UHGV virus genome: UHGV-0138819
Length of the DNA: 14,223 bases
From: a virus
Reading direction: 5' to 3' (one strand)
The notes beneath the pieces are model-generated. The model was not told where the DNA came from. It ran no database searches and was given only the letters and a program-made list of their open reading frames with translations. Shown here piece after piece: positions 1,820-13,681 of the stretch. The first letter of the stretch is position 1. Each line of letters opens with the position of its first letter. Position numbers and translations under genes: made by a program.

Positions 1820-2077
1820 ATGGCAAGATGTACAGATCAGCACCGCTATTGGGATTTTTTCGAACACTTACCCGACGACCAAGGTGGTATTGGCAGACAT
1901 AAATGTTGCGGTTGTGCTTACGAAAAAGGTTATCAAGCAGGATTAATACGATCCGAAATTTTGAACATTGATCTTGATTCCTTACATGAAAGCCAAGCAG
2001 GCACTGTCCGTCATAAGAGTCCACATGCAGCCTATGCTCAAGGATATTTAGATGGTATTACAGCATCTTATCGGTAA
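1820..2077 (+). CDS. Hypothetical small Cys/His-rich protein (85 aa)
   Basis: ORF with AGGA 6 nt upstream of the ATG. Contains HKCCGC and two AYxxGY repeats. No family recognised. Confidence 0.45.
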   Translation: MARCTDQHRYWDFFEHLPDDQGGIGRHKCCGCAYEKGYQAGLIRSEILNIDLDSLHESQAGTVRHKSPHAAYAQGYLDGITASYR

Positions 2078-2109
2078 TAGCCGCCTAAAAGACAGGAGAT
2101 ACGCTATTT

Positions 2110-2541
2110 ATGTCTGGAATGTTAGCAAGCACAGCGGCCGCTGTAGGAATAATTGATAAAGCTGTAGGAATTGCAAAGAAACTTGCTGATGATGGCGGTG
2201 AACTCGATAAGGCGACGCTTAAACTTGAGCTTGCAAACCTCATGACAGAGCTTGCCAGTGTTAAAATGGAAGTTATCACCACCCAGGCGCTACTTTTTGA
2301 AGCGGAACAGAAGAACAAGCAACTTGAAAACCAATTGAAAGATAAGGAATCATTTGTTTTCAATGCCCCTCTTTATTGGAAAAATGGTGACCAAGTTCCG
2401 TTTTGCCCAAAATGTTATGAGGGTGAAGATAAGAAAGTTCATTTACGCTTAATTGTTCACAATGGTACACCGCAACTAGGACTTCCTCCTGAAAACAAAT
2501 GGGCGTGTATGCATTGTCGTTTTTCGCACTCGAACATTTAG
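2110..2541 (+). CDS. Hypothetical protein, N-terminal coiled coil plus C-terminal Cys4 zinc-ribbon-like motif (143 aa)
   Basis: AGGAGA 10 nt upstream of the ATG. C-terminus has CPKC ...(~30 aa)... CMHC. Heptad-like N-terminal segment. Confidence 0.55.
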   Translation: MSGMLASTAAAVGIIDKAVGIAKKLADDGGELDKATLKLELANLMTELASVKMEVITTQALLFEAEQKNKQLENQLKDKESFVFNAPLYWKNGDQVPFCPKCYEGEDKKVHLRLIVHNGTPQLGLPPENKWACMHCRFSHSNI

Positions 2542-2549
2542 TAAATCAA

Positions 2550-2759
2550 TCATTTTTCGTTTTCAGAAGAGTTAAACGTCTTAGAATAGGGGCAGGATTG
2601 AGAGCGAGTCATCAGGGTAAACAGGTAAACGCTGTTTTCGTAAGTGCAAAGCCTCTTCCCGCCCTGCAACTCCTGTTCGTCGGGGTTGCTCATGGTGATT
2701 TTGCTTGCCGCAGCATTAAAAGCCAGCAACATACCGCAAATCAACAGAATACCTCTCAT
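2550..2759 (-). CDS. Hypothetical small secreted protein (69 aa) with N-terminal signal peptide
   Basis: Strong SD (AAGGGGGAGA) just upstream of the ATG on the minus strand. N-terminus MRGILLICGMLLAFNAAAS looks like a signal peptide. Convergent with the 2110-2541 gene. Confidence 0.5.
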   Translation of the reverse strand: MRGILLICGMLLAFNAAASKITMSNPDEQELQGGKRLCTYENSVYLFTLMTRSQSCPYSKTFNSSENEK

Positions 2760-2831
2760 ATCTCCCCCTTGAATGAACTGCCCTCTTCAATGCTAAATTG
2801 CATCCATCGTTCAACGATTATAGTAACAAAG

Positions 2832-2872
2832 TTGATCAATTTTACCGATCGATTTCGTAATTTCGATCGATT
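2832..2872. promoter_or_regulatory. Three GATC sites and two copies of CGATCGATT in the divergent intergenic region
   Basis: GATC at 2834-2837, 2847-2850 and 2865-2868. CGATCGATT at 2846-2854 and 2864-2872. Lies between the minus-strand gene start (2759) and the plus-strand gene start (~2928). Confidence 0.35.
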
Positions 2873-2927
2873 AAAATAATTAAAAATGTTAAGGCACATG
2901 TCGATGGTGTACTTAATCTATTCATCT

Positions 2928-3692
2928 ATGGAGGCTGTTTTGAAAAAGATTCTTGCATTACCTCTTATGTTCTTTTCCTTCTCGTCCTTCTCTGAAGGCG
3001 TTTCGTCTACAGATGTACAACCATACCCTGAGTACCTGGCGGCCTATGTAAAAACGTTGATTGCTGCTGGATGTGAAGAAACATTGAAAGGCGGTTCTGA
3101 GGACGTATTGATCAAACGGGCAACGGAGGGAATGAAGAAGGGCACGACGGGTTACGATAATGTACACAATGCTATCGTGTTGGGGGCTGGTTTCGGTAAT
3201 GGACTGAAGGAAAAAGGAAAACTTATCACAAAAGAAAAAATCGCGATTGATAGTTGTGGTGGTGCAGCGGCCTATACCATGATGCAAAAAGAATTTATAA
3301 AAACGGTCGTTGCTAGTATGACTAATCCGGAACAATCGCAGGTTGCCGATAGTAAACCCAAAGTGCCAGCTTCTGATGATGCAATTTACCGTACAAAAGC
3401 ACTAGCTCTGGCTGAACTTTATAAAGCTAACGAGGTTGCAGCCGATGACAAAATTGGTGGTCGTAAGGTGGAAGTAACCGGAACTGTACAGGACATAACA
3501 AAAAATTTCACGGATGATGTAGTTCTTAAACTTGAAAGCGGTAATCGCTTCATGCCAGTCAGTCTGAGTATGTCTGATTCAGAAAAGGCGAAAGCGTCGA
3601 AATTGGAAAAGGGCCAGAAGATCACCGTGACTTGCGAAAAGATGCAGTTTTTCATCGGTGCACCGTCTGGCGGAAACTGCACCTTTAACTAA
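2928..3692 (+). CDS. Hypothetical secreted protein (~255 aa) with signal peptide and a possible OB-fold-like C-terminal domain
   Basis: Long ORF ending TAA 3690-3692. N-terminus MEAVLKKILALPLMFFSFSSFSEG looks like a signal peptide. Start ambiguous: ATG 2886, 2898, 2928, or TTG 2940 preceded by GGAGG at 2930-2934. The OB-fold resemblance is my guess. Confidence 0.6.
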   Translation: MEAVLKKILALPLMFFSFSSFSEGVSSTDVQPYPEYLAAYVKTLIAAGCEETLKGGSEDVLIKRATEGMKKGTTGYDNVHNAIVLGAGFGNGLKEKGKLITKEKIAIDSCGGAAAYTMMQKEFIKTVVASMTNPEQSQVADSKPKVPASDDAIYRTKALALAELYKANEVAADDKIGGRKVEVTGTVQDITKNFTDDVVLKLESGNRFMPVSLSMSDSEKAKASKLEKGQKITVTCEKMQFFIGAPSGGNCTFN

Positions 3693-3706
3693 TCTGTCAT
3701 ACGGTC

Positions 3707-3727
3707 TGCCGGGTAAAATTCCCGGCA
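3707..3727 (+). other. Hairpin just downstream of the cargo CDS (7-bp stem TGCCGGG/CCCGGCA, 7-nt loop), no U-tract
   Basis: Inverted repeat seen directly. Not followed by a T-run, so terminator function is uncertain. Confidence 0.3.
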
Positions 3728-4986
3728 ACTCATCTACCCCACCTCATGGATGTCCCTGCTATTTGACGATCCAGCTTACATGCTCTTGCTGAAAATATCT
3801 TACGGCTCTCTGGGCCAGGTGCCTGACGTGACAGACGATCCCTCAATAATTTCTTATCTTCTTGCTGAAATATCGCAGAGCCGACAGGCCCAGTAACGTA
3901 TTTCACCACTTCATCCCGTAGAGCATCACAGCAGGGAAAACTTGCCGCAATAGGGCATTCTACTGTTCGTTTTCTGGTCTATTTAACATAATGGTTCTTA
4001 TAAGTACTTGACTGGAATGGTCAGGTATTACTTTTCGGAACGTTGACGCGAAGCTGGGTACACAACAGCGATTTCACCAACAGAAGGAAAGCATTCAGGA
4101 GGATTCGAGGTGAGTTCTCTTGTTCAAGGATTTTGGATGAGTTTGCCTGGTCACCACACAATTTCAGGTTTCAGACCTTTGAGGCTGCCAGTGTGTCAAA
4201 CGCCATAAAAGCACTTTTTTCTGTTTACCAGCAGACACAAAGCCACTACACCGACGTTACCACAACGGGCTGAAGGTCTGCCATCACCTGGTGATATTCA
4301 CGAGCCTGACCGCCACTGTTTCGTACCATTTCCCAAAACAATGTAAACAGCCAACCCACCAATCCCTTCTACGCTCCACCAGAAGCGCTACAGTGCGTTA
4401 TCCCCCCAGATGTAAACTGACGTACCGATAATCCACGACATCCCACAGCGCGATACAGGAACCACCAGAGGACATCTGTTTTAGTTTTAATGTGTCTTTT
4501 TTATTTTTTGTAAAAAGATGGTTCAGAAAGTGGGTTGTGTTTAGCACCCATTCAATTGGCGGATTCGCCTAGGCCGCGCCATTACTGGCTTCGCTGCATG
4601 CACCACACCATAACGCCCATAGGTACAAACTTGTGATTTGTACGTTTAGTGACCACTTTAGCATGATTAACTACGGATTATAGGCTATTTGAGGTGTATT
4701 TAATCTACTTTGTTCGCAGGATAGCCAATGATAAAGATCATCCACCAAATTTTCACAGAAAACTAGTATAGGGTTGCCAATCTTCAGCCAGCGCGGAGAA
4801 TGGTCGGTATTTTCAGATGAAAGCGGGGGAGGGAGATGATCAATTCTCGGAGCGGATCAGGTGCCTGGACCGCCTCAGGTGTTGCCGTCGATTGTGCCAT
4901 TGAAGCATGACGCGGACATATCAAACCAGAAGTTTTCATCGGTACGTTGGTCGCTTGGATGACTTGGAAAATTCTCACCCGGTGAT

Positions 4987-5075
4987 ACCTGCACGATTTT
5001 CGTGTACCCACCCCCTCGATTTTCGAGCACCTACCTGCACGATTTTCGAGTAGGGGGTAGTCGATTTTCGAGCAC
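4987..5075. repeat. Iteron-like array: four CGATTTTCG-centred repeats at 22-23 bp spacing, followed by an AT-rich tract; candidate replication origin or protein-binding array
   Basis: CGATTTTCG at 4994, 5017, 5040 and 5062. ACCTGCACGATTTTCG is exact at 4987-5002 and 5033-5048. CGATTTTCGAGCAC is exact at 5017-5030 and 5062-5075. AATAATAATAAATAACAAT follows at 5076-5094. Confidence 0.55.
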
Positions 5076-5649
5076 AATAATAATAAATAACAATCTCCAT
5101 AAAAGAACTGATAAGAAAAGTACCTCCAGGTCGAGAGCACGGAATGACGGTTGGTCATTCTGTTAGTTTTAATAGTGATGCTTCTGCATCGCTCCGCTCT
5201 GCAATGGCTGGTCAGCCACTTCAGATATGTTTGTGGTAAGAAGCTCACCTTTGCTGACGTGAAACAGCCGCGCCATCTCGTGACCTTCTAACCCTCGTTA
5301 ACACATCGCTACGCTCTGTGACTCGGGTAACCCGACAGGCTACGCCAGAGAGCTACGCTCTCACTCTGTGTGGAAGCTGCGAACTTGTTCGCCATATGTG
5401 GATCGGAGCACGGCGGAGAGGACTGCTTTGCATCTGTCCGGTTCACTCCGGGGCGGCGCGGGTTGTCTAACTGACTTCCTCAGCGCCTCTCTACGGCGTT
5501 TAAATGGTGTGGGTAACACGATGGTACTGCTATAACGACGAGTCCCCGCAGAACGCGTCACAGAACGATCTAGCACTATTGACAAAGATTTTTTAAACTT
5601 GTAATGTTATGGTGATTATTATGCATTATAAAATGCTACATGATAATGA

Positions 5650-5678
5650 TTGCTATTTACAAACAAATCTGATACAAT
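5650..5678 (+). promoter_or_regulatory. Candidate sigma70 promoter for the 5824-10406 operon (TTGCTA, 17-bp spacer, TACAAT)
   Basis: -35 TTGCTA at 5650-5655 and -10 TACAAT at 5673-5678 in an AT-rich region about 145 bp upstream of the first operon ATG. Confidence 0.4.
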
Positions 5679-5823
5679 AGATTTTAGTAGGGTAATGATT
5701 TACCTACGAATCCTCGAATAATTCTGCCGTCATCACGACATTCCTTGTCAACCTCACGGCAATACAAAATGGGTTACAAATAGAACCTCCGCGAATAATT
5801 CTTTTAACAGAACGGAGAACCCA

Positions 5824-6270
5824 ATGAATAAACCAAAATCCCAACGTCTCGACCTGACCACTATGACAGGCGAGCAGATCGCTGATCTCATCCTGAACGG
5901 CAAATACACCAAATCAGCTTTGTGGGCCTTCATTAGTAGAAACGGCGGGGCAGACGCTGTACATGCTCGACTTCCTCAGATCGCCGTCTGCCTGCAAATC
6001 CTGAAGCAGGCGCGGAAGAAAGCGAAGCAGGCACGAGTGGTTAAGACGGTGCTGAAGCCTCTGAGCAATAAATATGCTGAGGGTAATTCCTTAACGCAAA
6101 TCCTGAATCCTGTGTTACAGGGCTACCGCGAGCTATATAGAGAAAAACTGAATCTGGACCTGACACCAGAACAGGTGATCTTGCTCTTGATCGCCACTGA
6201 TGGTGTGGAACGTCTGGAATCCTACGGTTACACCTGTGCGGGTGACTTCCCGACCGCAACCGCAGTCTAA
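5824..6270 (+). CDS. Hypothetical protein (148 aa), first gene of the rightward operon
   Basis: GGAGA 8 nt upstream of the ATG. No family recognised. Confidence 0.6.
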   Translation: MNKPKSQRLDLTTMTGEQIADLILNGKYTKSALWAFISRNGGADAVHARLPQIAVCLQILKQARKKAKQARVVKTVLKPLSNKYAEGNSLTQILNPVLQGYRELYREKLNLDLTPEQVILLLIATDGVERLESYGYTCAGDFPTATAV

Positions 6271-6357: not shown

Positions 6358-6561
6358 ATGAACATCAAATTTCAACAGCACGTTTATCAGGCTCTACTAG
6401 CTGAGGCCAAAAGGCAGGACAAGCCCCTGGCACGGCTCTGTAATGAAATCTTGGAGACTGCCGCGAACATTTTCGACAACACACCAGACATCAAACCAGC
6501 ATTAGCCAGCAAGGCGACACTTTACGGAGAACAGAATGAGCAAACAGAACCGGGACAGTAA
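6358..6561 (+). CDS. Small putative ribbon-helix-helix (Arc/MetJ/CopG-like) DNA-binding protein (67 aa)
   Basis: AGGAGGA upstream of the ATG. N-terminal strand-like MNIKFQQ followed by two predicted helices (QALLAEAKRQ, PLARLCNEILETA). RHH assignment is by pattern only. Confidence 0.55.
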   Translation: MNIKFQQHVYQALLAEAKRQDKPLARLCNEILETAANIFDNTPDIKPALASKATLYGEQNEQTEPGQ

Positions 6562-7282
6562 GGATTTTGTAAAACTTGAATACAGCATTCTCGACCTTAC
6601 CGAGTACAACGGCCTGACCATTAATGGCAACATGAAAATTTTGCTATCTCTGGTTTACAGCTATGACAAAACAGGCAGAACTTATTACGAGTCTGTTGGC
6701 ATGATTGGTAAACGTTGCGGCTGCAAGCCCGAAGCCGTTCGTAATTTCAGGAACAAGCTTCGTGAAGCGGGAATGATCACTTTTGAGGAAGAGCAGGGGA
6801 GAACACACAAAATTTCTCCGGTCGAACTCGATCCATCGTTGATGGTTTTTCTTGACGATCATAATTCCACGCAGGTGAGTAATAGAAAAGTGGAAACCGA
6901 GGAGAGCGGTAAGAATGAGCAGAAACGTGATGTGGAATCTTTCGTGGTGGAACCTGCCGCGCCTGTTGCTGGAAAACCAGACGGCCTACCTGTTGTGGAT
7001 ATTCCTGTCGATGCTGATGTACCTGCCAATGATGATGCGGTGAACGCTTCTGATAGGTATACCGATGAACAATTAGGCACCAAGCTGAGGCGATGGCGCA
7101 ATTGGGGACTGGATGAAGAAGCAAAAGCGTTTTGTCTCTCTCATGGTATCAGCAGCGATGAGGACAGCATGAATCTGTTTATTCAAAATTATCATGTACC
7201 CGCACCGGAGTCAGTAGAACAACAGGTTAACGCCCCAGCAGATGAGCTGCCGCTTGATTATGATGACTCGATCCCTTTCTGA
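6536..7282 (+). CDS. Hypothetical protein (248 aa) with a putative winged-helix DNA-binding segment and acidic C-terminal region; candidate replication initiator or regulator
   Basis: GGAGA 5 nt upstream of the ATG. Overlaps the previous ORF by 26 nt. Segment YESVGMIGKRCGCKPEAVRNFRNKLREAGMI resembles wH/HTH domains. C-terminal half is D/E-rich. Confidence 0.55.
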   Translation: MSKQNRDSKDFVKLEYSILDLTEYNGLTINGNMKILLSLVYSYDKTGRTYYESVGMIGKRCGCKPEAVRNFRNKLREAGMITFEEEQGRTHKISPVELDPSLMVFLDDHNSTQVSNRKVETEESGKNEQKRDVESFVVEPAAPVAGKPDGLPVVDIPVDADVPANDDAVNASDRYTDEQLGTKLRRWRNWGLDEEAKAFCLSHGISSDEDSMNLFIQNYHVPAPESVEQQVNAPADELPLDYDDSIPF

Positions 7283-8265: not shown

Positions 8266-10406
8266 TGTCTGGCACAAATAAGATTGTTACCAGCACCGTT
8301 AATGAAATCTCGTGGATCACAGACGATGCCTCATATCAAAAAGCCAAAAAGAAGATTATCTCGCTTAAGGCTGCTCATGAGAAACCAGCTAAAGCGCTTG
8401 AGAAGGCCCAGAAGCGGACCGTCCAGAGTGAAGGCAAAGCAGCACTAGCCGCAGCGAAAGCCCAGACAGCGAAGCTACGCCAGGCTGAACAATTGTCAAA
8501 ACAGCAACAGAAACAAGCTCAGATACAAGCCAAAATGGAACGGGATGCAGTCTCCCACGCTAATAAAATGACCTCATTACAGGCGCGTCAGTTATCCCAG
8601 CAGGAACAGGCCGCACGGCAGAATGCCAGACTAGCAGCGATATCTGACAAGGTGAGACAGGCGAGTCGCTCCCGTGCAATGACCTACAATCCCAACATGC
8701 CTGGAGTTCACTCCGATCCATCTCTGGTGGCACGTCAAAATGCAGCGATGAACCGTGGTCACGGCGCTGTTGCTGCTGACATCGCAGCCACCAAAAAGGC
8801 GATGGCCTTGGAGGAGAAGCGTCAGCGTGAGAAAGAGGCAGGCCTTAAGCGCGAGGTGACTTATTACAACAGTTTGCGCCGTAGCGCTCTGACTCTGGCA
8901 AACGTGAACGGCGCTGACGTTGCAACCCGGTACAAAGCCATCAGTGCAGCAAAAGAGGCACTTAAAGCCCAGAAAGAAGAGCGCTATACGGTTGAAGAGA
9001 CCCGCTTCGAAATGGCTCGTATCACCACCGAATTACGCAAGCAGGCTCGTCTGCAACAGCGTATGACCCGTGAGCAGAAAGCCGCAGGTGTTCGTGCTGG
9101 TCGTGTACGCACAGAAAGCCGTGGTGGTAGAGCTGGTCTTGCAGCTGCTGGTGTTATTGGTGGTGCGTCGTTAGTGGGTAGTATGGGCGTTTCTCGTGTC
9201 GGTCAGACCCTCCAGGGAAGCCTTGAGCGCTCTCGCGATGTGAAAAAACTCCAGCAGTACGGGATCAGCAACCTTGAGTTCGCTGCACTTCAGGATCTCT
9301 CGATGAGCCGTGTTGGTTACTCACTGAGTGCTGACAAGCTGGCTGACCTCAACAAGGACACAACCGAAAAGGCCGGGGAATTGTTAAACACCGGCTCTTT
9401 CAAACGTAACAAGAAAACTGGACAGGTGAATTTCAGCGGCGGTGGCGAGTTCGCAGATATCATCAACAATGTGCTGACCTCCACCAACGGTAACCAGAAG
9501 GTAGCACAGAAGGTGATCGGAGAACTGCAAAAGCTGGATTTTCCGACCTTCATCACTTACCTGAAACAGTTGCAGAAAACTTTCAAATGGACGGACAACC
9601 AGACCCGGCACCTGGCTGAGGCTGTGAATGATGGTTCGGTCTTCCTCGAAGTGTTCAATGATGAGGGGCAGGGACTTATCCAGCGTATGCATCAACTCTC
9701 TTCTGAAGGATGGACCCTATCTGATGCGCAGCAAGCCAACCTCGATAAACTGGCGGCGTTAGGTGCTGAGTACAACCGAGTGCAAACCAGCCTTGCAGAT
9801 CATTTCTCAGCCTCGTTTGTTGAAGGCCTGGGGCAGTACGCTGCCAATACTGAAACTCTACGTCAGAAGATGACTGGACTGATCCCAATTTCCGATGCCC
9901 TCGGCGTTGCCCTTGGTGAGCTAACCACCAACATTCTCTCCTTCTCTGGTCGAGTCGGTGAAGAACTTAAGAAAGGCGCGACATTGCCGGATGCGGTGTA
10001 TACGAGCGTGGTAGATGAATCTGCAAACGGTGCTGCCGATTGGATTAAGGAAAAGACAGGCTTTGATCCACGTAGCATCGGTCAGACGCTTAAGCAGATT
10101 TACCCGTGGCTGGATAGTTCAGCACCGAGCAATATTGGCTCAGGCACGGCGTATAACGATCCAGCGCTAGCGTTGAATGTTCCTAGCCTGAACTATCTGA
10201 CACCCCAGCAACCGACGTTTACGGTTCCGACAATTGACAGCATGACGCTGCGACAGCCGATTCCTGTCAGTGTTACCGGGCAAGCGAACATTAATCAGCA
10301 GATGGATGTGTTTGTCCATGACGATAAGATCGCAGGGCTGGTTGATACCAAGATAAGGGAGAACAACCACGCGCAGAATAACCTCATCCTTGGGATTGCA
10401 GACTAA
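8265..10406 (+). CDS. Large hypothetical protein (~713 aa): Ala/Lys/Gln-rich coiled-coil N-terminal ~300 aa, Gly-rich hydrophobic segment, unrecognised C-terminal region
   Basis: Uninterrupted 2.1 kb ORF with start overlapping the upstream stop (TGATG). Hydrophobic GLAAAGVIGGASLVGSMGV mid-protein. No Walker A, no relaxase HxH motif, no primase zinc-finger pattern seen. Confidence 0.7.
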   Translation: MSGTNKIVTSTVNEISWITDDASYQKAKKKIISLKAAHEKPAKALEKAQKRTVQSEGKAALAAAKAQTAKLRQAEQLSKQQQKQAQIQAKMERDAVSHANKMTSLQARQLSQQEQAARQNARLAAISDKVRQASRSRAMTYNPNMPGVHSDPSLVARQNAAMNRGHGAVAADIAATKKAMALEEKRQREKEAGLKREVTYYNSLRRSALTLANVNGADVATRYKAISAAKEALKAQKEERYTVEETRFEMARITTELRKQARLQQRMTREQKAAGVRAGRVRTESRGGRAGLAAAGVIGGASLVGSMGVSRVGQTLQGSLERSRDVKKLQQYGISNLEFAALQDLSMSRVGYSLSADKLADLNKDTTEKAGELLNTGSFKRNKKTGQVNFSGGGEFADIINNVLTSTNGNQKVAQKVIGELQKLDFPTFITYLKQLQKTFKWTDNQTRHLAEAVNDGSVFLEVFNDEGQGLIQRMHQLSSEGWTLSDAQQANLDKLAALGAEYNRVQTSLADHFSASFVEGLGQYAANTETLRQKMTGLIPISDALGVALGELTTNILSFSGRVGEELKKGATLPDAVYTSVVDESANGAADWIKEKTGFDPRSIGQTLKQIYPWLDSSAPSNIGSGTAYNDPALALNVPSLNYLTPQQPTFTVPTIDSMTLRQPIPVSVTGQANINQQMDVFVHDDKIAGLVDTKIRENNHAQNNLILGIAD

Positions 10407-10440
10407 AATCATCGTTCCGTCGAAAATGGCGCAGCAAATT

Positions 10441-10460
10441 GGCCCACACGAGAGAGGGCC
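10441..10460 (+). terminator. Weak terminator-like hairpin after the 714-aa gene
   Basis: GGCCC (10441-10445) pairs with GGGCC (10456-10460) around a 10-nt loop, followed by a T-rich stretch (GTTATTGTTTTTGTTGTTG). Confidence 0.25.
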
Positions 10461-10490
10461 GTTGAATTCGCCATGTTATTGTTTTTGTTG

Positions 10491-10520
10491 TTGCAAATGA
10501 TAATCATTCGTGTTAAAATA
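10491..10520 (+). promoter_or_regulatory. Fur-box-like palindrome (AATGAT-A-ATCATT) overlapping a candidate sigma70 promoter (TTGCAA, 18-bp spacer, TAAAAT)
   Basis: Perfect 6-1-6 inverted repeat at 10495-10507 inside 10493-10511, about 14/19 match to the Fur consensus GATAATGATAATCATTATC as I recall it. -35 TTGCAA 10491-10496, -10 TAAAAT 10515-10520. Confidence 0.35.
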
Positions 10521-10926
10521 ATATACAAGGTGAATTACAACAGCCAAATGTTTTCCCTTCTCCTTAGGAATCAAAGTGCGCTTTTCCCAGAGCGCCTTTT
10601 CTCATACAGCCAATATTCGCACCCTCTCACGGTAAGGTTAGGCCATTGCCGCTGGCTGTATCAGAAAAGATTTTCTCCGACCTTGGATCGGGGATTTGCC
10701 AAAGCCTTTCATCCTCGGAAGGCCGTCTTGCCAGACGAAAACTGGCATTGAGTGCGGCAGCGAAGATATGAGGTCTCCCGCTGCTGTGCTCCCTCATTCC
10801 TGAAGCGTGACCCGCCGATCATGCTTTCCAAATCTCTCCATCAGAAAATACCATCGTGAAGCTATTAGCAACGCATGTTGCTAACCCGTAAACGGGTGAA
10901 TTTCATCATCTCCGATGATCTACCAA

Positions 10927-10962
10927 CCGGGGCAGGCGTTTTCCTGCCTCCGGCTCTTTTTC
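10927..10962 (+). terminator. Terminator-like hairpin (CCGGGGCAGG / CCTGCC-T-CCGG) followed by CTCTTTTTCT
   Basis: About 10-bp GC-rich stem with one bulge, T-rich tract a few nt downstream. Confidence 0.4.
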
Positions 10963-10984
10963 TGTTGGGAATACAAATAAAAGA

Positions 10985-11010
10985 ATGCCGTCCGATGGAC
11001 GGTATTTTTT
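10985..11010. terminator. Rho-independent terminator, probably bidirectional
   Basis: Stem ATGCCGTCC / GGACGGTAT with loop GAT, then TTTTT on the plus strand. The plus-strand AAATAAAAG just upstream gives a U-rich tract on the minus strand. Confidence 0.6.
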
Positions 11011-11049
11011 CAACACAACCCGGCATATTCGCCGGATTATAAAAATTGC

Positions 11050-11412
11050 ATGGAGATACAACAAAATATGGCATTCGAACATGAAAGCAAAACCCCACAG
11101 GATGTATTGGTTTATACCGATAGCCCGATCTTTCATAAGCGCACCGTGATCTTTGATCTGGCTGCTGATGTGACTTGTGGTGATGTGATTAACCCGACCA
11201 CTGGCGCGGCATACGTTGCAGCCGATGCTGATAACTGTGCTGTAGCTCTGCAAAATCAAATCGCTGGTGATGCCCGTAGCCTGGTCATTTCAGACCGTGG
11301 CTGTGTGTTCAATCCATCTGGTCTGGTTGTAGCGGCTGCTGCAAAAGATGCTGCTTACGCTGCCCTTGTTAAGCAAGGCAACCGCATTGCTGACGCAAAC
11401 ACTGCAATCTAA
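11050..11412 (+). CDS. Putative phage head decoration-like protein (120 aa, or 114 aa from ATG 11068)
   Basis: Small Ala/Gly/Val/Asp-rich protein immediately upstream of a ~340-aa capsid-like ORF, the lambda D-E arrangement. Product call is inference from size, composition and gene order. GGAGA at 11052-11056 fits the 11068 start. Confidence 0.5.
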   Translation: MEIQQNMAFEHESKTPQDVLVYTDSPIFHKRTVIFDLAADVTCGDVINPTTGAAYVAADADNCAVALQNQIAGDARSLVISDRGCVFNPSGLVVAAAAKDAAYAALVKQGNRIADANTAI

Positions 11413-13435: not shown

Positions 13436-13556
13436 CCTGTCACACATAGACCAAAAGGGCCGCTTTTACCGTTTACAAGACTTCCCGCTGGCATTACTAT
13501 CCTGATCAGGGATTAATGAGGAGCATTAATCGCAAGCTTTTGATTTTATAGTACAT

Positions 13557-13627
13557 GACTCGGGGTGCCCTTCTTTGTGAAGGCTGAGAAATACCCGTAT
13601 TACCTGATCTGGATAATGCCAGCGTAG
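13557..13627 (+). repeat. attR: element-derived riboswitch-like 5' arm plus shared core; right copy of the 71-bp direct repeat
   Basis: Differs from 188-258 at three positions (TT for GC at 13575-13576, T for C at 13601). Canonical host sequence resumes after 13627 (GGAAGTCACGG...). Confidence 0.8.
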
Positions 13628-13681
13628 GGAAGTCACGGACCACCAGGTCATTGCTTCTTCACGTTATGGCAGGAGCAAACT
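13557..13681 (+). promoter_or_regulatory. TPP (thi-box) riboswitch in the thiM 5' leader, hybrid of element-derived 5' aptamer half and host 3' half plus expression platform
   Basis: GGGGTGCCCTTCT..GTGAAGGCTGAGAAATACCCGTAT.ACCTGATCTGGATAATGCCAGCGTAGGGAAGTCACGGACCACCAGGTCATTGCTTCTTCACGTTATGGCAGGAGCAAACTATG matches the E. coli thiM riboswitch as I recall it, apart from three substitutions in the 5' half. Confidence 0.85.

Follow-up and report, generated by a model that had tools for sequence, protein, structure and literature searches.

Iteron origins of plasmids and of phage P1, such as P1 oriR, F and pSC101, combine iterons with an A/T-rich unwinding region whose short repeats contain GATC sites, and their specificity is tied to the Rep protein. 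P4, a small helper-dependent integrated element, possesses a non-coding control region comprising ori/crr and CI RNA immunity. In G4-type single-strand initiation signals, three hairpins are recognised by primase on single-stranded DNA (ssDNA). The origin of phage lambda contains four 18-bp iterons and a 38-bp AT-rich stretch (PMC3349717). Immediately after this stretch, the lambda sequence shows an inverted repeat at 39162-39189 with 12-nt arms and a 4-nt spacer. Here we compare with these systems a 2.1-kb gap between genes, positions 3693-5823 of the UHGV virus genome UHGV-0138819. This whole stretch of 14,223 nt, referred to as the window, is 100% identical to the chromosome of E. coli AREA_C483 (NZ_CP123310) and includes an integrated, capsid-encoding satellite-like element of ~13.3 kb. 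The gap probably represents the non-coding control region of this element, with a replication origin in its centre, promoters on its right side, and a conserved module, block B, marking a boundary on its left.

The gap is preceded by a gene for an OB-fold protein (2886-3692), the last of a few cargo genes to its left, and is followed by g148 (148 aa, 5824-6270, + strand), the first gene of a rightward operon. The gene order in this operon is g148, g67, rep, g173, g142, a 714-aa gene, and the genes for a lambda D-like decoration protein and a lambda E-like major capsid protein (MCP). The rep gene (6536-7282, + strand) encodes a 248-aa winged helix-turn-helix (wHTH) protein of the HTH_36/DUF6945 type. 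Relatives with the same gene order were found in 41 of 5,426 complete E. coli genomes (about 0.7%) and in other genera, and the related elements, whose loci are given as L numbers, all retain a similar gap at the equivalent position. Literature searches found no description of this element family. The gap appears to be an origin-plus-control region in an apparently undescribed family of satellite-like elements.

Absence of coding signals and conservation of the gap

The original prediction described the region as a stretch without a convincing open reading frame (ORF) in an otherwise compact element, and this proved correct. The stretch begins one base after the stop codon of the OB-fold gene and ends one base before the ATG of g148. 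RefSeq lists no feature across it in NZ_CP123310, nor is any gene annotated in the gap of any homologous E. coli locus (38-41 genomes). According to the RefSeq table, coding density outside the gap is ~88% and the next largest unannotated stretch measures 661 nt, which makes the gap an outlier. Its longest ORF, of 154 aa (4784-5248, minus strand), crosses the iterons described below, in line with the earlier remark that minus-strand candidates run through repeats.

Substitutions in blastn alignments to more than 20 related loci were projected onto the window and counted by codon phase. A strong excess at third positions was evident in int, a 69-aa minus-strand gene, g148, g67, g173, g714 and the MCP gene (chi2 16-481), rep being the exception among the genes (chi2 0.4). 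No such excess was detected in blocks A to F, into which the gap was divided by comparison, or in the ORFs 4043-4273, 4110-4208, 4784-5248 (minus strand) and 5361-5585 (minus strand) (chi2 <= 3.8). Single-base indels were frequent in the gap alignments, and indel-containing columns numbered 15-69 in each of blocks B to F and only two in block A. The three ORFs named in the original prediction had no Pfam matches. Searching the gap by tblastn with every ORF of at least 50 aa from all loci gave matches only at homologous DNA and in several frames at once.

It is highly improbable that the gap consists of decayed genes or harbors small unannotated protein genes, for which the 32-codon ORF 4110-4208 would be an example. 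This ORF is preceded by a canonical AGGAGG 6 nt upstream of its GTG (AGGAGG-N6-GTG at 4096-4112), which corrects the earlier remark that the candidate ORFs lack credible ribosome-binding sites, and other loci do hold a real gene of ~120 aa on the minus strand or a short tyrosine recombinase gene in equivalent slots. However, the ORF itself shows no coding signature, the AGGAGG is buried in an 11-bp hairpin, and L013 has GTA at the position of the GTG start. The 123-aa minus-strand protein and the short tyrosine recombinase encoded at the equivalent position of other loci left no tblastn remnant in the gap. ORF 4784-5248 shares only 63.6% amino acid identity with L006 over 4620-5006, far below the 88-96% nucleotide identity of the aligned DNA segments. 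The decayed gene that had been suggested as one possible content of the stretch is not supported: all six frames match the relatives equally. Since annotation, codon periodicity and frame-specific protein matches are all missing, we conclude from the comparison that the stretch is non-coding and not the ruin of a gene.

Judged by the alignments, it is the conservation of the gap, not its lack of ORFs, that exceeds chance. The comparison with related elements revealed conserved non-coding blocks, as had been considered possible, and a complete lack of conservation was not observed. The gap is a mosaic of blocks that differ in phylogenetic spread. On average 6-8.5 related loci align over blocks B to F, which is similar to the core genes. 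Blocks B, C and D are 77-85% identical to L013, L016 and L017, although the capsid proteins of these loci are only ~32% identical to those of the window. Blocks B and D are more conserved than most proteins of the element and therefore probably carry functions.

Putative replication origin

Four iterons with the core CGATTTTCG and a period of 22-23 bp (spacings 23, 23 and 22 nt) are located at 4986-5075. The exact core occurs four times there and nowhere else in the window, and this search revealed no second iteron cluster in the window. Directly adjoining is a 50-nt stretch with 78% A+T (5076-5125), the presumed DNA unwinding element. Of the related loci scanned, nearly all contain three to four iterons at the equivalent relative position, each type with its own sequence (TCATCGGTAA, CAAAGTTTGTACAT, GGTGTCTTCT, CCACTGAAGAAAGGTAAG, TTTGTAAGGTCGCC, AAACCATGTCCAGA and GGTAGGGACAACATAGTGTCC). 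In relatives, the A/T stretch following the iterons includes the repeated 8-mers TAAGATCA/TAAGGTCA (TAAGRTCA) with GATC sites. Sequences resembling DnaA boxes, inspected by eye, matched at only 6-7 of 9 positions.

The iteron sequence co-varies with the type of the protein encoded by rep. In every pair of loci for which both types are known, N-termini with at least 65% identity were associated with the same iteron type. L017 and L019, with N-termini 49.5% identical, have a common TAAGGTCG core, and the iteron of L018 matches the CCACTGAAG family. L008 has the same initiator and iterons as L003 and L005, whereas its g148 is 88% identical to that of the window, compared to 32% for theirs. Because a different g148 type is situated between iterons and initiator gene in this locus, their coupling does not just reflect linkage. 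An origin had been listed among the cis-acting sites that the stretch may contain, and the iterons and A+T stretch at a conserved position, together with this co-variation, agree with that suggestion. Since the iteron type follows the N-terminal type despite the mosaic structure of the elements, we assign the initiator function to the 248-aa protein and place the core origin at 4986-5125. The comparative data thus provide good support for a putative core origin of the lambda-style iteron type, whose iterons would be bound by this protein.

In comparison to the lambda origin, the order of iterons, A+T stretch and inverted repeat is the same, hairpin H1 (see below) taking the place of the inverted repeat. 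Likewise, four tandem iterons are spaced by about two helical turns, an A+T stretch of ~40-50 bp is adjacent, and the inverted repeats have a centre of 4-5 nt. As in lambda O, the N-terminal DNA-binding domain of the initiator is of a type that matches the iteron sequence, which in our case is comparative evidence. A lambdoid flavour is also apparent elsewhere in the element from the E-like capsid and D-like decoration proteins. In contrast to ori-lambda, which lies inside gene O, the putative origin is non-coding and located ~1.45 kb upstream of the initiator gene, beyond the operon promoters. The two share no sequence similarity, and in the window H1 is followed by two further hairpins, H2 and H3, and by ~330 nt of conserved GC-rich DNA. 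The wHTH initiator gave weak matches to O-like/DnaD-like PHROGs (E 2.8e-4 to 5.6e-6), so that its assignment as O-like is weak too. By its sequence, the centre of the gap nevertheless has the features of a lambda-type iteron origin and differs only in the lambda-specific location inside the initiator gene.

The GATC-containing TAAGATCA repeats of the relatives and the dependence of iteron specificity on the Rep type are also reminiscent of the iteron origins of plasmids and P1. Unlike in these, no second iteron cluster suited for handcuffing was found in the window, and neither the gap nor the second-type B/C region of L017 had a match in PLSDB, by megablast or by sensitive blastn. Like P4, the element would be a small, integrated, helper-dependent one with a non-coding control region of considerable size; in both, origin and initiator gene are at different places, the replication operon is preceded by a long leader, and a cargo hotspot adjoins the core. 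Homologues of the P4 alpha primase-helicase, sid, delta or psu were not recognised among its genes, and the gap yielded no C4/CI-type RNA in Rfam. The idea of seqA/B/C elements like those of P4 was considered for the leader repeats at 5711 and 5788 and block A (4096-4110) and was dropped; the 9-nt complement is at chance level, and the distribution of block A among the loci does not coincide with that of the long leader. In kind, the combination of iteron origin and control region is nothing unusual for a small mobile replicon, and the origin assignment offers a starting point for experiments on replication and induction of the element.

Within rep, the segment 6894-7045 aligns in ~6.5 loci, compared to 1-2 for the remainder of the gene. 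Even in L003 and L005 the identity amounts to 85-90%, and the substitutions show no third-position excess (24, 21 and 15 by codon phase). The segment may represent a joint formed by recombination, or a cis-acting site within rep.

Hairpin module beside the A+T stretch

Next to the A+T stretch follows block D (about 5130-5320), which includes a module of three + strand hairpins (5139-5224). H1 (5139-5163) immediately beside the A+T stretch has a 10-bp stem and a 5-nt loop. H2 (5173-5192) is formed by AGTGATGC/GCATCGCT and contains a U.G pair that has been called invariant and is U.G in 22 of 30 sequences. H3 (5197-5224) has the arms CTCTG.AATGGC and GCCA.CTTCAGA, and its stem is lengthened in the window by a 3-nt insertion.

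Covariation in block D was analysed in a MAFFT alignment of 15 loci, which was not fitted to the model, and in a model-based alignment of 30 distinct sequences, which takes in metagenomic copies and favours the structure to which it was fitted. Cells were paired in 88.7% (MAFFT) and 93.4% (model-based) of the cases, and in only ~40% and 33-45%, respectively, when the partners were slid. Seven pairs had changed on both sides in the MAFFT alignment (2-6 in slid controls) and 10 pairs, with 41 cells, in the model-based alignment (2-4 in slid controls). None of 500 shuffles of the MAFFT alignment reached the observed values on three of five measures, and 5 and 15 of the 500 did so on the others; for the model-based alignment, it was none of 500 on all five. 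H1 carries compensatory double changes at 6 of 8 pairs and occurs in at least six stem versions (AATGAC/GTCATT, TTGAAC/GTTCAA, GTGAAC/GTTCAC, TTAAAC/GTTTAA, ATAGAC/GTCTAT and GATGAC/GTCATC). In H2, 91% of the cells are paired, and in H3 96%, with double changes at three pairs. At the two outer pairs of H1, 16-18 of the 30 sequences each have G.U on the + strand, which would be A.C on the minus strand, and the alignment folds better on the + strand (-31.6 compared to -22.7). This indicates that block D forms a strand-specific, single-stranded structure.

The module is found once per locus, in the orientation of the operon and always beside the A/T stretch, whatever the type of iteron or leader. 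The exception is L047, where three matches to the block D model (133.7, 69.0 and 28.9 bits) within ~740 nt (6508-7244) imply that the unit can be repeated in tandem. Neither the collections of plasmids and phages nor other E. coli genomes contained block D. It resembles G4-type initiation signals in that three consecutive hairpins are situated on one strand beside an unwinding element, with strand-specific pairing that tolerates G.T. It differs from these in that a CTG start site is not universal: the window, L003 and L005 have no CTG after H3.

Strand-specific hairpins supported by covariation are also what would be expected of a non-coding RNA, another content that the original prediction had envisaged. 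Blocks D/E, and perhaps A/B, might be genes for structured regulatory RNAs that mediate, for instance, immunity or antitermination acting on the rightward operon. Models for this would be the P4 CI RNA, the P1 C4 RNA and the HK022 put RNA, and the origin would then be only one tenant of the gap. We consider this rather unlikely. Apart from the covarying hairpins with G.U pairs on the + strand only, it would accord with the neat hairpins inserted into block B (L022, L023) and block E (L009, L017) of some relatives, as is often seen in structured RNAs, and with the lack of a recognisable protein repressor in the window, which an RNA-based immunity or antitermination could replace. Moreover, CGCTC-like boxes followed by a hairpin are present in the alignments of both B and D; these presumably resemble boxA/boxB. 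On the other hand, a covariance scan with Rfam 15, which included C4/CI antisense RNAs, riboswitches and group II introns, gave no match in the gap at the gathering score, and at E<=10 positions 3600-5900 matched only a snoRNA at chance level (E 8.6). The promoter scan did not reveal a conserved promoter upstream of D or B. Blocks A and B folded no better than shuffled sequences, block B lacking a consensus fold as well. For all blocks, complementarity of 9-mers to other parts of the element did not exceed chance. Furthermore, block D tracks the A/T stretch of the origin and not the leader type. The strand-specific hairpins of block D are supported by covariation and may or may not act as RNA.

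In the window, H1 has complements of 10-17 nt to the translation starts of g148 and rep, but an antisense interaction with these was rejected, as complementarity was within the background in 13 of 13 loci. Rather unlikely, about as much so as the regulatory RNAs above, is the proposal that D/E and B are new family-specific nucleic acid structures in the sense of regulatory RNAs, or that D is a new type of ssDNA priming or loading signal of an iteron origin. Based on its fixed place beside the unwinding element, the parallel to lambda, and the lack of a conserved promoter upstream, we lean towards block D being an origin-associated DNA structure.

Putative promoters and leader of the rightward operon

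The right part of the gap contains putative promoters and a leader, which the original prediction had not mentioned. P1 (5579-5607, + strand; TTGACA-17-TAATGT) is a sigma-70 type sequence with a score of 13.0, the best in the 2.4-kb upstream region. A scan of 20 relatives found homologous TTGACA-17-TAxxxT sites with scores of 12-16 in most of them, and in some cases two or three TTGACA promoters follow one another in tandem. P2 (5650-5678, + strand; TTGCTA-17-TACAAT, score 12.7) has a TG upstream of the -10 region and is also found in L002, L009, L012, L019 and L025. The consensus match and the conservation of these sites give good support to the prediction of P1 and P2 as tandem sigma-70 promoters of the main operon. 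The resulting 5' leader of about 140-210 nt (5608-5823, + strand) contains the direct repeat TCCKCGAATAATTCT at 5711-5725 and 5788-5802 and a Shine-Dalgarno sequence GGAG before the ATG at 5824. This long leader type is common to L002, L008, L009, L017 and L019; other loci have a leader of ~50 nt.

Between the hairpins and P1, the + strand region D2/E (5225-5578) is conserved, GC-rich and devoid of coding signals; in the comparison, block E corresponds to 5321-5560 and block F to 5561-5823. A second 'hairpin + CTGTGTGG(T)AAG' unit occurs in block E at 5346-5382, and L003 and L005 seem to have arisen by deletion between both copies of this unit. A TAAC repeat at ~5462-5470 varies from one to four copies among relatives. 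RNAalifold predicted an extended fold of block E with some compensatory pairs, although the sequences are closely related and the fold is no better on one strand than on the other. In L017 and L009, block E has insertions of 47-50 nt with GTGAACC...GGTTCAC hairpins.

Block B at the border of the cargo region

Block B (4287-4545, + strand) is the most widespread block of the gap, a family-wide module found in 21 of the 24 loci that cover the region. Its + strand is rich in C and poor in G: over ~150 nt, C amounts to 32-40% and G to 14-21%, with C/G ratios of 1.6-2.55 in 21 of 21 loci. In the window, 4211-4488 is the only + strand stretch with C/G>=2 and C>=33% over 150 nt. Block B had no coding signal in the codon-phase test and no consensus fold, and its folding z-scores (+0.95 on the + strand, +0.17 on the minus strand) were no better than those of shuffled sequences. 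It contains direct TGTAAAC-containing repeats at 4342-4348 and 4411-4417, and its 3' end consists of an A/T palindrome (4492-4517) followed by the T-run TGTGTTTAGC. Enrichment of the TGTRAAC motif was not significant (7 found, 4.1 expected), and a seemingly covarying hairpin at 4384-4395 was not counted because its registers differ between lineages.

The composition of block B, being C-rich, G-poor and poorly structured over at least about 80 nt, is that of Rho-dependent terminators. In every locus the block ends 1.0-1.5 kb before the first operon gene. Four kinds of left flank converge at its left edge, which thus forms the border of a variable cargo region, and in L007, L018 and L019 the core of the block is directly adjoined by an intrinsic terminator belonging to the gene upstream. 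Our best guess is that block B may serve at the cargo boundary as a Rho-dependent terminator of the rut type, or as an insulator. L022 (~2950-3005) and L023 have a 55-nt insertion inside block B with three perfect short hairpins.

The cargo slot to the left (1820-3692 in the window) differs in gene content in every locus compared (window, L003, L005, L006 and L013). Its genes encode an OB-fold protein, an ATP-dependent nuclease, an ImmA/IrrE peptidase, a DUF4145 protein and a small membrane protein. This variation suggests a hotspot for cargo or defence genes, with block B as its boundary. In L005 (8869-9423) and L006 (8864-9418), a minus-strand gene for a 184-aa tyrosine recombinase of FimB/FimE-like size replaces block A to the left of block B, from which it is separated by ~580 nt of non-coding DNA.

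A packaging site was a further cis-acting element proposed for the stretch. The element encodes a capsid and a decoration protein and has no recognisable terminase or portal, so that a packaging site is needed somewhere, and B and D are conserved regardless of the initiator type. Block B or D/E could accordingly be a cos or pac signal for the terminase of a helper phage. We regard this as quite improbable, since neither the gap nor the second-type B/C region of L017 matched any of 50,697 phage genomes, even by sensitive blastn, and the best local alignment to lambda cos scored 24, compared to 24-26 for the rest of the window. The resemblance of CGGGGCGGCG...CGGGTT at 5445-5462 to the lambda cos sequence was dismissed for the same background score. 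In addition, a site acting as duplex would not explain the strand-specific G.U pairing of block D and the strand composition bias of block B. An equally good candidate location exists at 10407-11067, a second unannotated stretch of 661 nt directly upstream of the decoration and capsid genes. Short segments of it are conserved in relatives, and 10380-11080 had only one 38-nt chance match to phage DNA; this stretch is a possible location of the packaging site.

Model of the control region

We propose that the gap acts as an origin and control region. The wHTH initiator would bind the four iterons at 4986-5075, whereupon the adjacent A+T stretch would melt. The hairpin module of block D may be part of the origin or be used right at it: the displaced + strand would fold into the D hairpins, which could serve as a loader or priming aid, like the inverted repeat of ori-lambda. 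P1 and P2 with the 140-210 nt leader would drive the rightward operon from g148 to the MCP gene. Rightward transcription of the cargo genes would be stopped via Rho at block B, whose RNA would be C-rich, G-poor and unstructured, with the A/T palindrome and T-run coming next, and transcription would thereby be kept away from the silent origin and the operon.

Several observations weigh against this model. Binding by the initiator and firing of the origin are deduced from sequence, and the initiator assignment is based on weak profile matches (best E 5.6e-6) together with co-variation. The iterons are located ~1.46 kb upstream of the rep start codon and, unlike in lambda, outside the initiator gene. 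Block D could equally be RNA, as hairpins of ssDNA and of RNA look alike at the sequence level, and two pairs are broken in the metagenomic copy L045, whose H1 is a hybrid. The lack of a conserved promoter upstream of D or B also counts here and makes transcription of both hypothetical. Regarding block B, rut sites are normally poorly conserved, yet it is 72-88% identical across genera, and therefore something more specific than composition must be constrained. Furthermore, L005 and L006 have a leftward gene beside block B and no obvious rightward transcript to terminate. Finally, blocks A, C and E are without an assigned role. The gap can nevertheless now be mapped into the putative origin, the promoters with the leader, and the conserved modules A, B and D/E.

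Remaining blocks of the gap

The leftmost part of the gap (3693-3980) is a lineage-specific spacer with a GC hairpin at 3708-3730 just after the OB-fold stop codon. Positions 3693-3976 were covered by only two E. coli genomes of ~100% identity, and the alignment to L013 starts at 3868. In L013, the equivalent of 3868-3980 is the region upstream of a leftward cargo gene. No protein remnant was detected in the spacer by tblastn.

Block A (3981-4286, + strand) is a non-coding module present in a subset of relatives (L002, L003, L013 and L017). It occurs in five variants, and its core (4060-4145) is almost invariant. Its start is marked by TTGACT adjoining an imperfect inverted repeat (4010-4030), and it contains a weak + strand promoter-like site, TTGACT-15-TACTTT. 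The 11-bp hairpin that sequesters the AGGAGG is located on the + strand at 4096-4122, includes three G.U pairs, and is present in both the minimum free energy and the centroid structure.

Block C (4546-4985) is a variable spacer with mosaic homology between block B and the iterons. A promoter-like site is found on its minus strand, with a -10 region TATAAT at 4677-4682 and a -35 region TTAAAT at 4698-4703 separated by a 15-nt spacer. In L003, L005, L007 and L008, the slot of block C holds the ~120-aa minus-strand gene, which is absent from the window.

Element family and integration sites

The family (loci L002-L026) comprises integrated elements of ~12-13 kb. Their products include an integrase, the wHTH initiator, a coiled-coil-like protein of 714 aa, and capsid proteins of the lambda D and E types. 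Genes for a portal, terminase or tail were not recognisable among the element proteins in searches of Pfam, PHROGs, NCBIfam and PDB sequences, and for the neighbouring uncharacterised proteins the same searches were uninformative except for the initiator and the capsid. Besides E. coli, relatives were found in Enterobacter, Pseudocitrobacter, Kluyvera, Silvania, Pantoea, Winslowiella, Citrobacter, Pseudenterobacter, Rahnella, Biostraticola, Buttiauxella and Klebsiella, that is in 13 or more enterobacterial genera overall, as well as in IMG/VR and metagenome contigs. In L017 (6688-9017) from Citrobacter amalonaticus, the first ~400 codons of the homologue of the 714-aa gene are on the opposite strand, indicating an inversion within the gene.

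Integration sites vary among the relatives and include tRNA-Gly, tRNA-Thr and thiM. In the window, the insertion point is the thiM leader, and thiamine pyrophosphate (TPP) riboswitch sequence is found at either end of the element. The insertion duplicated 71 nt of the riboswitch (188-258 and 13557-13627, 95.8% identical; matches at 182-278 and 13551-13647). The left copy is a full-length aptamer match with 53.6 bits, the Rfam cut-off being 54.3, and is located ~42 nt upstream of the start of the tyrosine integrase gene int (320-1702), so that the integrase occupies the usual place of thiM behind the riboswitch.

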